From: an uncultured delta proteobacterium
GTDB taxonomy: Bacteria > Desulfobacterota > Binatia > UBA9968
DNA length: 64,000 bases
NCBI GenBank assembly: GCA_963760795.1
Contig: CAVXEP010000013.1
Span: 224,001 to 288,000 of the forward strand
Direction: 5' to 3'
Shown here: piece after piece, positions 15,478 through 34,804 of the stretch
Layout of the letters: each line of letters opens with the position of its first letter
Numbering within the stretch: the first letter of the stretch is position 1
The notes under the pieces: generated by a model
Seen by the model: only the letters and a program-made list of their open reading frames with translations
The model's database searches: none
What the model was told of the DNA's origin: nothing
Made by a program: the position numbers and the translations under genes

Positions 15478-15507
15478 GGAGCCCAATCCAAAATCGAAAA
15501 TCCAAAA

Positions 15508-16592
15508 TTACTTGATGACCTGATTCGCCCGCGAAAGAAATTCCGGCGAAAGCGTCAGGCCGATCTGCTTCGCCGCTTTCAAGTTGATGACGAACTCAAA
15601 CTTCGTTGCCTGCTGTACTGGCAGATCGGCAGGTTTCGCTCCCTTGAGGATCTTGTCCACGTAGTGAGCGGACTTGCGGAACAGGTCATCGTAGTCCGCC
15701 CCATAGGACATCAGACCGCCCTCATCGACAAACTCCTTCTGGAAGTAAATAGCTGGTAACCGGTATTTGCCGGCAAGCTCGACGATGCGCTTTCTTTCAG
15801 CCGAAAAAGGAGGGAGAGGTTAACGTCATAATCGCGTTGACCTGCTTTTGCTTTGCGGATTGGAAGGCGCTCTCTAAACCTTTGGGATTAGGTTGCGTCT
15901 TAATCACCTCCAATTCTAGCTTCAGCACCACAGCCGCAGCCCTGAGCTTTTTCAGTTGGAGATCTGTTGATATGGCGCCTATGCCGCCTTCCCGGCCCCC
16001 GCAGAAATCCAACTCGGGCGAGCTTGGGTATGGCGTCCTTGAGTATCTCTAGCCTTTTGGTATTTAGCTCGGTCGCTAAAGTCGAGAGCCCTGTAACATT
16101 GCCTCCCGGCCGTGCCAGACTGGCAACCAGGCCTTCACCCACAGGGTCCCCAACCCTCGTCATCACGATGGGGATAGTAGTGGTGGCGCTCTTGGCCGCT
16201 AACGTCGGTCCCGTCGCTGAGACCACGATCAAATCAACCTTAAGACGAACCAGCTCCGCTGCAAGCTCAAGTAGGCGCTCAGAACCTTTGTTTTCTCCAT
16301 ACCGGTATTCAATGCTGATATTCTTTCCCTCAATCCATCCCAGCTTCGTCAGCTCTTGTCCGAACGCCTCCACCAGGACCGCGCTACCGGAAGCAGTGCT
16401 ATGTATCGAGGAAACCGATGCGAAAGATTTTCTCCAGGCTGCTGCGCGTGAGCCACAGCCCAACACAGCGCGAATGCTAACAACGAGGGCAAGAAGCGCC
16501 ACCGATTTTGGTCTACAGGGCCGCTTTTGGATTGTGGATTTTGGATTGTCGGATCGAAGCCAGCTAATTGCAGTCCGAAACTTCTTTGTCAT
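15508..16592 (-). CDS. Orphan ABC_sub_bind (PF04392-like) substrate-binding protein, several frameshifts
   Basis: Pieces GWIEGKNISIEYR, LVASLARPGGNVTG, KRLEILK, MSYG...YVDKILKGAKPADLPVQQATKFEFVINLK...RANQVIK* in several frames. Confidence 0.85.
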
Positions 16593-16637
16593 GTCCTAGC
16601 CCCCCCAAATCCAAAATCCAAAATCGAAAATCCAAAA

Positions 16638-17632
16638 TTACTTGATGACCTTATTCGCCCGCGAGAGAAACTCCGGCGAGAGTGTCAGTCCGATCTGTTT
16701 CGCCGCTTTCAAGTTGATGACGAACTCAAACTTGGTCGCCTGCTGCACCGGCAAATCAGCCGGCTTGGCGCCTTTCAAAATCTTGTCCACGTAAACAGCC
16801 GCGCGCCGGTACAGGTCATCGTAGTCCGCCCCGTAGGACATGAGACCGCCCTCGTCGACAAACTCCTTCTGAAAGTAAATAGCCGGCAAGCGGTATTTGC
16901 CGGCAAGCTCGACGATCCGCTTTCTTTCGGCGAAAAAGAGGGCGACTGGTGGTCGTCATGATCGCGTCCACCTGCTTCTGCTTTGCGGTTTGAAAGGCGC
17001 TCTCTAAACCTTTGGCGTCGGATTGAGTCTCGATCTCCTCCAATTTTAGCTTCAGCGCCAGAGCCGCAGGCCTGAGCTCTTTCAGTTGGAGGTCTGATTG
17101 CCTATGCTCGCCTCCCGGCCGCCGCAGAAGTCCAACTCGGGCGAGCTTGGGGATCGCGTCCTTGAGTATCTCTAGCCTTTTGGTGTTTAGCTCGGTCGCT
17201 AAACTCGAGAACCCGGTGACATTGCCTCCCGGCCGCGCCAGACTGGCAACCAGACCTGCACCCACGGGGTCCCCAGCGTTCGCCATCACGATGGGGATAG
17301 TAGTGGTGGCTTTCTTCGCCGCCAACGCCGGTGGCGTCCCTGAGACCACGATCAGATCAACCTTAAGACGAACCAGGTCCGCCGCAAGCTCAGGCAGGCG
17401 CTCAGACTTTTGCTCTGCAAATCGGTACTCGATGGTGATATTCTTTCCCTCAATCCATCCAAGCTTGCGTCAGCTCTTGCCGGAACGCCTCCAAGAGGAC
17501 CGCGCTACCGGAAGCAGTGCTTCCATCCAGGAAACCGATGCGAAAGATTTTTCCAGCTTGCTGCGCGTTGGCAATGGGACCAGAAATCACAATGGCAGTT
17601 GCCAGTAGCCAGATGACAATGGATTTCATCAT
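16638..17632 (-). CDS. Orphan ABC_sub_bind protein, frameshifted
   Basis: MMKSIVIWLLA signal peptide, RIGFLD, LARPGGNVTG, ...RANKVIK*; very similar to 15508-16592. Confidence 0.87.
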
Positions 17633-32187: not shown

Positions 32188-33270
32188 TCATTTGATTATC
32201 CTAGTCGCCCGCGCCAGAACCTCCGGCGCAATCGTCAAACCGATCTGTTTCGCCGTCTTGAGATTGATCACAAACTCGAACTTCATCGGCTGCTCCACCG
32301 GCAGGTCGGCGGGCTTGGCTCCCTTCAAAATCCTGTCGATGTAATATGCGACTCGCCGGTAGCTGTCCGCGAAGTCCGCTCCGTAGTACATCAGCCCACC
32401 CGCATCTACAAATTCGATGCTCTGGTACACCGACGGCAACCGGCTCTTTAACGCAAGGCCGACGATCCGTTTTGTGTTAGCACGCAAGACTGAGCCCGCG
32501 CTGGACACATAGAGTCCATCAGGGCGCTGTTTGCCCAACGCAGCGAATACCCTGTCGAAATCGTCCACAGTGCGTACCTCCCACGGCTGAAGAGTCAACT
32601 TCAGCGCACGCGCCGCCACTGGGAGAACTTCTTTCACCTCGCGTACGCTAGCCGGAGTTGACACACTGCCCGGATCGTAGAGAAACGCGACACGAGCAAG
32701 TTTGGGAACCGCTTCTTTGAGCAGCTCCAACCGCTTCCCGCCAAGTTCTTGGCTAAGGTTTGTAATGCCGGTGACGTTGCCGCCGGGACGGGCAAGGCTT
32801 TCAACGAAGCCTGCCTCGACAGGATCGACCCCTCCGCCCACCATAACGATGGGAATTGTCTTGGTGGCATTCATGGCCGCCAGGATCGGCCCACCCCCTC
32901 TTGCTACCACGATGATTTCGACCTTGAGATGCACCAGCTCGGCCGCAAGCTCGGGGATCCGATCGCGCTTCCCCTCCGCAAATCGGTATTCGGTGGCGAT
33001 GTTCTGTCCCTCGATGTAGCCGCGCTCGCGCAGGGCCAGCCGAATTGCCTCGGCACGGGCGGAGTCACTAACTGCATCGCCCGGCGATAGATACCCTATC
33101 CGCGGGACTTTCTTCGGCTGCTGAGACTCAACCCCGCCTTCCAATCCTACGAACGCGATAACGAGGGCGAGCAACCCTAGCCATTTTGGATCGCGGATTT
33201 TAATCCGCGGGGCCGCTTTTGGATTACCGGAAAAAGAATCGGAAACTCGCTTCGAAGCAATTATTTTCAT
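32188..33270 (-). CDS. Orphan ABC_sub_bind protein
   Basis: Intact; RIGYL, ESLARPGGNVTG, RATRIIK*. ATG at 33270; the ORF extension upstream is intron sequence. Confidence 0.92.
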   Translation of the reverse strand: MKIIASKRVSDSFSGNPKAAPRIKIRDPKWLGLLALVIAFVGLEGGVESQQPKKVPRIGYLSPGDAVSDSARAEAIRLALRERGYIEGQNIATEYRFAEGKRDRIPELAAELVHLKVEIIVVARGGGPILAAMNATKTIPIVMVGGGVDPVEAGFVESLARPGGNVTGITNLSQELGGKRLELLKEAVPKLARVAFLYDPGSVSTPASVREVKEVLPVAARALKLTLQPWEVRTVDDFDRVFAALGKQRPDGLYVSSAGSVLRANTKRIVGLALKSRLPSVYQSIEFVDAGGLMYYGADFADSYRRVAYYIDRILKGAKPADLPVEQPMKFEFVINLKTAKQIGLTIAPEVLARATRIIK

Positions 33271-33310
33271 GCGTCTTATTCCCCCATCCAAAATCGAAAA
33301 TCCAAAATTA

Positions 33311-33984
33311 ATCGCGGTAGGGACGGTCATTGCTGACCGCCCCCCGCACAGACCCGTACGTGCGGCGCTACCGCATACGGTTCTTACCTCGGATGTTGAC
33401 GTGCAAAGCTACACGTACACCCAGCAATCCGCGCGACCTGGCTACGAACGGTTTCCCGTCCGAGTTCCGGCTCTGTGTCCGGTCCAGTAGCGATTGCTCG
33501 GTGTTCTCCTTGGTCAGTCCCCTTCCCTCCGCCAACTCCGCAGGCAGCGCCACGCCGCCCTTGTTCGCTGGTTTCTTCGGTACTATGGAACTGTATGACT
33601 CCCCGTTAACGTGCATGTCGGGATTGTGGCCTCGCGCCTTCTCCGACCGTTCCGCTTCTGTTGTAGAAACGGAAGTCACCGGGGTCTCTCGGCTTCCGTG
33701 AGAAAAGTTTCCAACCGTGCCAGTGGTCTTTGACTCCGTGGGGGTCCCATCGAACTTGCCAATATCGCTCGACATGACTGTTGCCTTCCCCATATCAAGA
33801 TAAGGTCGGCCTCCACAAAAGGGTGTTTTCGGAGCTCAATACACCGCCCGGTTGTACCTCTGTGAACGCTTCGCCCTGCCGGTTGCCCGACACTGCGCAT
33901 CACTCGAGGCCAAGGCGACTGGCTAGGTCTTACCTCGTACGACTCTTTCATTCGCTACCTTCCTCCGGCTTTTGCCGACGCTTC
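33311..33984 (-). mobile_element. ORF-less group II intron (IEP internally deleted; resembles bacterial class E)
   Basis: Minus strand ends with domain V GAACCGTATGCGGTAGCGCCGCACGTACGGGTCTGTGCGGGGGGC and domain VI ...CCCTACCGCGAT. Starts GAAGCGTCGGCAAAAGCCGG. EBS1 CTTGAT (33794-33799) pairs with exon ATCAAG. Removing it restores GTCATCAAG-TAATTTTGG as at 16638. Confidence 0.88.
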
Positions 33985-34023
33985 CTTGATGACCTTATTC
34001 GCTCGCGTGAGCACCATCGGCGG
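33985..34023 (-). pseudogene. 3' remnant of an ABC_sub_bind gene (5' exon of the intron)
   Basis: PPMVLTRANKVIK, followed after the intron by TAA. Confidence 0.85.
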
Positions 34024-34098
34024 ATTTGCTCAGCCAAACGAATGCGCTTGACCTATGTCCCCCTTGCTCTTAGAATTCCCTCGTAGGAGGTTTTTCCA

Positions 34099-34317
34099 AT
34101 GAGAGCGATAAAAATCCATGTGCCAGATACCCTGCTGCGCAAGCTGCCTAAGAGCCAAGCCGAGAGAAAAGAAGTTGTAAGATTGGGACTGCAGCGCTTC
34201 ACTTCGCGTCGGCGCAAGAAAGCGCGTAGCGTTGTAGACGATACTTTTGCCGCGCTGGCCGTCCGAAACCATGCCAAAATAGAGCAGCTGATTGAGCAAA
34301 CAAAATATGGCGATTAG
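34099..34317 (+). CDS. Putative antitoxin of a PIN toxin
   Basis: 72 aa, RBS AGGAGG, ribbon-helix-like N-terminus; overlaps the PIN gene start. Confidence 0.7.
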   Translation: MRAIKIHVPDTLLRKLPKSQAERKEVVRLGLQRFTSRRRKKARSVVDDTFAALAVRNHAKIEQLIEQTKYGD

Positions 34318-34804
34318 ATCCCTGGAGGATGTCCCGGATGAATCAAATATTTTTGTTGATACCAATATTCTCATCTATCACCTGCTTGACGATGAGTTGT
34401 ATGGGGTCTCCTGCCGAGATTTTCTCAAGCGAGTGGAGACTGGCTCGGTCATAGCGTTAACTTCGCCCATTGTCGCTTCCGAAACTCTGTTCATTTATCT
34501 TCGCGCTTGGCTTATCAAAAACAAGAAGATCGCTCCCAAACGTGTCCTTCGTTATCTCAAGCGCCATCGAGCGGCGGTCAAGGAAGTGGACTTTCATAAG
34601 CCACTGGCTCTGCTCGCCCTCATGCGGATCCTTCCCCTTAGTAAGGACGTCATGCAGACCTCCTATGACTTGATGACGCGCTACCAATTGCTCCCTGCCG
34701 ATTCCATCGACGCCGCTCTTATTCGCCGCCACCATCTAGCGGCTCTGGCCACTCGCGACGACGACTTTGATCTTGTTGAGAGTCTCGATGTGTACAAGCC
34801 TTGA
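34307..34804 (+). CDS. vapC: PIN-domain VapC toxin
   Basis: IFVDTNILIY, S..VASE, LLPADSI, LATRDDDF. Confidence 0.9.
   Translation: MAIRSLEDVPDESNIFVDTNILIYHLLDDELYGVSCRDFLKRVETGSVIALTSPIVASETLFIYLRAWLIKNKKIAPKRVLRYLKRHRAAVKEVDFHKPLALLALMRILPLSKDVMQTSYDLMTRYQLLPADSIDAALIRRHHLAALATRDDDFDLVESLDVYKP

Follow-up and report, generated by a model that had tools for sequence, protein, structure and literature searches.

A group II intron lineage very probably programmed for the last-codon/stop junction of ABC_sub_bind genes

The survival of group II introns in bacteria is ascribed to their avoidance of genes, and to our knowledge the exceptions to this take single housekeeping genes as their targets. 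The systems closest to the one described here are the groEL stop-codon introns and the families of introns without an open reading frame (ORF) in Thermosynechococcus. The groEL introns (Avi.groEL, EcKTE56.groEL) are described as a specialized IIB1 lineage at start and stop codons of housekeeping genes, which inserts between bases 2 and 3 of the stop codon, recreates the stop with the first G of the intron and has as its hallmark a large 5'-subterminal insertion, 300-700 nt long and placed at the base of domain I (Gomes et al. 2025, PMC12584367). For the TeI3/TeI4 introns of T. elongatus, mobilization by driver proteins of the same genome has been shown experimentally (Mohr et al. 2010, PMC2882425). 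Class IIC introns are reported to read a DNA hairpin together with a short pairing between exon-binding and intron-binding sites (EBS-IBS) at terminators or attC (PMC12584367, PMC4424553), and the ORF-less C.te.I1 of Clostridium tetani, in a genome without a related protein gene, is presented as the sole known exception (Zimmerly and Semper 2015, PMC4424553). Here we analyzed a stretch of 64,000 nucleotides (the window) from an uncultured delta proteobacterium of the Binatia (assembly GCA_963760795.1, contig CAVXEP010000013.1, positions 224,001 to 288,000), whose minus strand carries at 33311-33984 a group II intron of 674 nt that lacks a reverse-transcriptase gene. What is new in this intron and its relatives is that the target is one codon boundary of a large paralogous family, that it has been reached twice, and that this goes with loss of the 5' end GUGYG and with an early in-frame stop.

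Like the groEL introns of that account, the lineage is tied to a termination codon, its unspliced message would end almost normally and it would home by EBS-IBS pairing; unlike them, with their single-copy essential gene, it sits before the stop of a multi-copy family and carries a stop 4-12 codons inside the intron. With TeI3/TeI4, as characterized in PMC2882425, it has in common ORF-less copies that share break-points within domain IV and keep pieces of either end of the ORF, a good EBS/IBS fit at the insertion sites and a diverged target specificity. The T. elongatus introns are reported to lie mostly in other mobile elements and intergenic sites, however, whereas the present lineage occupies one codon boundary of a gene family, and the genome of the window, which is 88.9% complete, is without a detected reverse transcriptase. 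Class IIC introns, in the accounts cited, are likewise specialized on an abundant, repeated and low-cost type of site, but the present intron recognizes its target by a 6-bp EBS1 plus EBS3, matches the Rfam model RF02005 instead of a IIC model and has no terminator-like site in its region. C.te.I1 resembles it in that both are bacterial group II introns without an ORF, each in a genome where no gene for a related protein is detected; C.te.I1 is described from a complete genome and its splicing has been shown, while the present intron is known from sequence alone in an incomplete one.

A preliminary description of the locus, made from its letters, had proposed a 674-nt element with domains V and VI, and the Rfam searches bear this out. 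With cmscan, RF02005 (group-II-D1D4-6; cut-off 49 bits) matched the minus strand at 33724-33946, the domain I core, over the full model (1-225) with 160.4 bits (E 2.6e-46), and RF00029 (domain V/VI) matched 33311-33385 over the full model (1-77) with 40.6 bits, barely over its cut-off of 40; in the literature we found RF02005 named in Rfam release papers only. The 674-nt RNA folds with a z-score of -4.9, well under the shuffled controls. Read on the minus strand, the context of the intron is ...AAGGTCATCAAG / intron / TAATTTTGGATTTTCGA, with the wider flanks ...GTCATCAAG on the 5' side and TAATTTTGG... on the 3' side, and the insertion point is exactly ...ATCAAG/TAA. The uninterrupted junction that the preliminary description had placed at 15508 and 16638 is present as an exact 20-mer (ATCAAG plus TAATTTTGGATTTT) at 15497-15516 and 16627-16646 on the minus strand, where frames of 103 and 105 amino acids end (two occurrences in the window against none expected from 100 shuffles). 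Because neither terminal base can slide against these uninterrupted junctions, the boundaries are exact to the base. The intron ends in AU, with an unpaired, bulged A 8 nt from the end in the part that matches RF00029 (CCCUACCGC), and begins, as had been noted, with the non-canonical GAAGCG (33979-33984), where canonical relatives read GUGCG. The insertion given as the hallmark of the groEL lineage is absent, as 38 nt separate the 5' end from the start of the RF02005 match; blastn of the full-length relative L007 against E. coli genomes gave just 64% identity over the reverse-transcriptase core of ltrA genes, which is not decisive for a relation to the groEL introns. The intron is the single copy in its genome. 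These features are best explained if the element descends from a mobile group II intron of a IIB-like type and has lost the ORF.

Relatives were collected by DNA searches, first of 61 and later of 90 related genomes, and by a protein-based scan of genome contigs, and the deduplicated set gave 36 distinct 5' junctions that were read; metagenome contigs scanned with a pattern internal to the intron gave 80 loci, 12 of them without a readable 5' end. Insertion at the last-codon/stop position of genes of the PF04392 (ABC_sub_bind) family was found 26 times, at 15 of the 80 metagenome loci and at 11 of the 36 genome-derived junctions, namely the window copy and L004, L007, L009, L021, L022, L034, L035, L041, L043 and L047 (copies are given by L numbers, genomes by G numbers). 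In all 26 the intron lies between the last sense codon and the stop: a stop codon (TAA, TGA or TAG) follows directly and in frame in each of the nine genome-derived copies whose 3' end is known, and the six metagenome copies with a readable 3' side are all consistent (TGA in four, TAG in one and a single T at a contig end in the other). The intron resides in intact genes too, because L009, L022 and long metagenome frames end at the junction. In L009 and L022 the PF04392 match runs to profile position 293 and 292 of 293, at the junction; the host gene of L043 is nearly intact; and 13 of the 15 metagenome host frames match ABC_sub_bind proteins of the window's genome to the last residue, eight of them in alignments of at least 268 amino acids. 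The targeting of a conserved ABC_sub_bind terminus by an intron lineage, as had been proposed, thus stands at the level of the lineage. Most relatives begin with GUGCG and lie at the site ..AAAAGGGGUCRGG/A.., unrelated to the ABC_sub_bind family. The preliminary description had held that copies at unrelated sites would speak against it; 24 of the 36 genome-derived junctions do lie at other sites (L029 is uncertain), but with a different EBS1 that fits those sites. The 26 counted copies include none from G004, an unpublished genome in which L006 and L024 have the 5' end GAAGCG at GGGKUCGGG sites, L018 has a second deletion junction, an AAC triad in domain V and TGA as its 3' exon, and L029 is possibly a further ABC_sub_bind end.

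The sequence CUUGAU at intron nt 186-191 (33794-33799, minus strand) is a terminal hairpin loop in the Rfam alignment and the entire 6-nt loop in the minimum-free-energy fold, in agreement with the preliminary description, which had staked its reading on that position and on the complementarity of CTTGAT to the exon end ATCAAG. All six bases pair with AUCAAG (33985-33990), which encodes Ile-Lys, the final two sense codons. When EBS1 was compared with the last six exon bases of 31 copies, 176 of 186 positions paired and 23 copies paired at 6/6, a count reached in none of 2000 exon shuffles (shuffle mean 157); for this count the first G was assigned to the exon in copies starting GGUGCG and in L005, leaving introns that start GUGCG or GAGCG. 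The two partners covary, as CUUGAU/AUCAAG, UUUGAU with AUCAAA or AUCAGA, CCUGAC/GUCAGG, CCCGAC/GUCGGG and CCUGUC/GACAGG, and all ten readable metagenome copies pair at 6/6, among them CCGAAU/AUUCGG. An EBS1 of YUUGAU, UCGAAU, CCGAAU or CCUGAA goes with an ABC_sub_bind end in every copy that has it, and copies outside the target family mostly have CCUGAC, which fits their own sites GUCRGG. On this covariation we assign the CUUGAU loop as EBS1 and AUCAAG as IBS1.

For EBS3, all domain I columns were scanned for bases that could pair with position 1 of the 3' exon. Intron nt 254 (33731, minus strand; the A in GGAGUC(A)AAGAC) was the sole standout column: it is complementary to that position in 22 of 23 copies, through A-U, U-A and G-C pairs, and is assigned as one half of an EBS3-IBS3 pair of the IIB kind, the other half being the T at 33310 of the TAA stop (33308-33310). 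The sole exception, L017, is also mismatched at EBS1 and looks ectopic. At ABC_sub_bind ends EBS3 is an A opposite the U of the stop, which accounts for the presence of TAA, TGA and TAG alike. Copies with different types of target differ in the internal loop that lies 5' of the EBS1 hairpin. EBS1 would thus pair with the last two sense codons (AUC AAG in the window) and the A of EBS3 with the U of the stop, and reverse splicing would then put the intron directly after the last codon and directly before the stop.

A maximum-likelihood tree (IQ-TREE, first 500 nt, 34 rows) holds these copies in two clades. Clade A (the window copy, L047, L004 and L007; support 87/94) is nested among GUGCG introns and has L006 of G004 as its sister; clade B (L009, L021, L022, L034, L035, L041 and L043; 100/99) is sister to Acidobacteriota introns and also holds L037, whose site is still of the canonical type. 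On well-supported branches the ABC_sub_bind label cannot be explained with fewer than two changes of target. Two separate clades have thus made the shift to ABC_sub_bind ends, and by the tree the specialization belongs to two sub-clades of a wider intron family and not to the whole family. The usual ABC_sub_bind terminus, ..AAGGUGAUCAAG/U, differs little from the ancestral target, ..AAGGUGUCAGG/A, and this resemblance would explain why the same shift is found in two clades: a near-cognate slip may have been followed by fitting of EBS1 and EBS3 to the new site, along a path that was open twice, and the exon-binding sites would in this way have been reset from the usual ..AAAAGGGGUCRGG/A.. to the ABC_sub_bind 3' end. 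The ABC_sub_bind family offers many near-identical targets. The window's genome has 98 Pfam matches to PF04392 and 74 frame ends with the terminal motif of the family, of which 28 close frames of more than 250 amino acids and 46 close frames of 250 or fewer, several of them orphan pieces of 8-30 codons without an intron. We consider it very probable that EBS-IBS pairing programs an intron lineage for the last-codon/stop junction of ABC_sub_bind genes, where its copies would have arrived by retrohoming.

The same distribution might be produced by vertical inheritance, if a single ancestral insertion in an ABC_sub_bind gene had been spread by gene duplication while EBS1 drifted with the exon to keep splicing. 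The homologous position within the gene in all 26 copies and the high expansion of the family would agree with this, as would L034 and L041, both of G073, which have similar 3' flanks. Yet the introns of clade A are 90-93% identical and have nothing in common in their 3' flanks, and the window copy and L007 match at 29 of the last 39 exon bases (counted by eye). Most paralogues, including the closest ones in the window, are without the intron, which is patchy across the genus (matches in 6 of 30 genomes), and clade A is nested among introns at unrelated sites with at least two label changes in the tree; descent from one insertion is, in our estimate, exceedingly improbable. Another way to the same sites without any targeting is that a 3' fragment of an ABC_sub_bind gene and the intron were moved as a unit by recombination or by another element. 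Such a unit would account for 5' exons of 7 to about 38 codons in the window copy, L004, L007, L021, L034, L035 and L041, and for L021, in which a full gene is followed by two orphan termini in a row. The fragments vary in length and sequence, however, and EBS1 fits each of them; L009, L022, L043 and at least eight metagenome copies end long ABC_sub_bind frames; and fragmentary termini are common without an intron (46 of 74 termini in the window's genome close frames of 250 amino acids or fewer). The share of genome-derived copies in fragments (8 of 11) matches that of the fragmentary termini on offer and is near a random draw among termini. Joint transport is a very improbable account.

The target may also have been hit without specialization, through sporadic ectopic retrotransposition of an ordinary intron family into near-cognate gene ends, each insertion being dead on arrival. 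The likeness of the ABC_sub_bind terminus to the canonical target, the imperfect EBS1 pairing of L004 (4/6) and of L009, L021 and L035 (5/6) and the AAC in domain V of the window copy are what one would see in that case. Against this, EBS1 and EBS3 have changed to suit the new site in both clades, L007 and L047 are full-length copies at ABC_sub_bind ends with open frames of 565-566 amino acids, and the presence of several EBS1 variants among 26 insertions at a single codon boundary argues for repeated successful homing after retargeting. We regard chance insertion of this kind as very unlikely and favor a lineage programmed for the junction.

The full-length relative that the preliminary description had called for was found: such relatives are about 1.94 kb long and encode a reverse transcriptase of 558 amino acids, in which Pfam detects RVT_1 only and no endonuclease domain. 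The open frames of L007, L047 and L008 have 565, 566 and 574 amino acids, and the PDB matches of the intron protein are generic group II reverse transcriptases. The window copy keeps residues 1-132 of the 558 at 81% identity (33395-33793, minus strand, partly overlapping domains I-III; the sole match when its genome was searched with P0001), a frame of about 68 codons from the likely ATG, and at the other end about 7 codons, out of frame; about 1.27 kb of the ORF is gone. The earlier view that the intron-encoded protein was cut to a few codons at each end therefore holds for its end and fails for its start. The deletion junction in domain IV (33404-33409, minus strand; from alignment with the full-length L007, L008 and L017) is common to the window copy, L004 and L005, which lie at three sites in three genomes and pair with their EBS1 at 6/6, 4/6 and 6/6, respectively; the ORF-less copies of clade B have one common 5' break-point and four different 3' break-points. 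One deletion junction common to three copies at three sites suggests that ORF-less RNAs moved with the protein of a relative (trans-mobilization), for which the retained 5' part of domain IV could be the binding site. The domain V variants are spread as a mosaic among the copies, and exchange between intron copies is evident.

Several observations weigh against a lineage that is programmed for this junction and moves in trans. The copies are related by descent, and the counts given above exceed the number of independent events. EBS2 was not identified when the internal loop 5' of EBS1 was compared with exon positions -7 to -13, as no register emerged. Neither splicing nor mobility has been observed for any copy, and the contigs from RNA libraries represent relatives of the intron body only, without exons. 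Eight of the 11 genome-derived copies at ABC_sub_bind ends lie in short gene fragments and not in intact genes. The 5' exon of the window copy (33985-34029, minus strand) is itself an orphan gene remnant and not a gene: its frame, which ends ..ANKVIK (..PPMVLTRANKVIK), is open for 15 codons only behind a TGA at 34030-34032, and tblastn with the ABC_sub_bind proteins of the same genome found no gene body upstream of the intron, as just the last ~21 residues match. A consensus scan, the only promoter search made, found no promoter-like site on the intron strand in the region, and the domain V triad (33380-33382) is AAC and not AGC. The genome (G000, 88.94% complete) gave no RVT_1 match and no second match to P0001, and in the two genomes with both forms the full-length frames are broken (L017 in G019, longest frame 329 amino acids; L043 in G073, 218 amino acids). 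Lastly, the copies that share the deletion junction form no clade in domains I-III, where L004 is sister to the full-length L007, and therefore gene conversion or recurrent deletion could make ORF-less copies in place.

None of the 26 copies at ABC_sub_bind ends has GUGYG; their 5' end reads G+N(1-3)+GCG. A ribosome reading into the intron would meet an in-frame stop after 4-12 codons in 25 of the 26, and after four codons in 14 of them; the window copy, if unspliced, extends the frame by nine residues. The early stop is kept although the 5' end varies between 5, 6 and 7 bases and the frame shifts with it. Because translation ends 4-12 codons into the intron, an insertion should cost little even when unspliced, and for the related copies the pattern is suggestive of a low cost to the host. 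The target had been called nearly harmless, which agrees with these stops in 25 of 26 copies and carries less weight in the window, where the host gene is a dead 15-codon remnant. The AGC catalytic triad in domain V is a defining feature of group II introns. Among 42 unique copies 37 have AGC and five AAC; the AAC copies lie at five sites and three have open protein frames, and the variant may be tolerated. Besides the window copy, L007, L008, L018 and L047 have AAC. In the window copy and L007 the base opposite the triad (33353) is G where the others have A, which flips a G.A pair to A.G. With its AAC triad, its remnant exon, no visible promoter on its strand and no detectable reverse transcriptase, the window copy is probably stranded. 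We think it rather doubtful, if worth stating, that in two independently converging clades the G+N1-3+GCG end and the early stop are an adaptation to translating ribosomes and that AAC is a functional alternative core. If this were true, the host protein could be produced whether or not the intron is spliced, through the remodelled 5' end and the early stop, and the intron could persist in tandem transporter arrays and perhaps modulate read-through.

For a lineage with this target, whose relatives live in soil bacteria, the conserved terminal codons of a family that numbers dozens of genes in each genome would form a renewable pool of homing sites, used by at least two clades. The copies offer a natural series of matched variants of EBS1, EBS3 and target, of ORF-less derivatives and of 5'-end and domain V variants for assays. 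In genome annotation, transporter genes that are parted from their stop by such an insertion of 0.67-1.9 kb will look truncated or extended. Our literature search found no paper linking group II introns to the ABC_sub_bind family; published intron lists could hold a relative.

Among public sequencing runs the largest share of sampled words found in any run was 0.29. In two DNA runs and two RNA-library runs, contigs of relatives match the intron body with 88-99% likeness and leave its flanks uncovered. One X3 record (depth 3.2) runs from 33310 to 34000 with 16 letters between, as would be expected of this junction, or of a paralogous one, without the intron; its sides are short and it was not counted. 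DNA contigs of the soil run X1 have an intron 3' end joined to a GUGCG 5' end (window 33311/33981), and L087 and L088 are head-to-tail tandem arrays of related introns in one metagenome-assembled genome. A related metagenome sub-lineage with the 5' end GAUAGCG (L140, L142, L148, L159, L165, L169, L176, L189, L191, L193, L201 and L203) lies directly after GC-rich hairpins (GGGGCAG..loop..CUGG), a class IIC-like targeting in an RF02005-type intron. The canonical GUGCG relatives L061, L105, L050, L116, L005, L008 and L017 lie inside short inverted repeats (AAAGG../..CCUUU), L008 and L017 at the centre of longer palindromes.

The next gene of the array, an intact ABC_sub_bind gene (32188-33270, minus strand; PF04392, 138.5 bits), begins 37 nt past the stop. 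On the 5' side, comparison of 33985-34800 with 31 genomes of the genus showed that just the last ~40 bases, a generic gene terminus, recur elsewhere, and gave no orthologous locus in which an empty site could be read. On the plus strand, divergent from the intron, a small ORF (34099-34317) overlaps an ORF with a PIN domain (34292-34804; PF01850) in a vapBC toxin-antitoxin-like arrangement, and this pair may have replaced the body of a lost ABC_sub_bind gene; the single promoter-like site of the region, from the consensus scan only, is on the plus strand and faces the pair. Decay of ABC_sub_bind genes is large-scale, for example on contigs C25, C13, C19 and C20 of the same genome, and assembly frameshifts may contribute to it; at L021 (1250-1500) a full gene is followed by a terminus of 16 codons and then by one of 7 codons. 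An intergenic motif, TTTTGGATTTTCGATTTTGGATT, follows many stop codons of the genome, for example at 33280-33307 and 15480-15496 of the window, and TTTGGATTTT occurs 103 times in the genome. An element ..GCCAGGATTGAACTGA.TTCTCC.. stands just past several ABC_sub_bind stops in different genomes, at L007, L034 and L041 and on contig C31 of the window's own genome.

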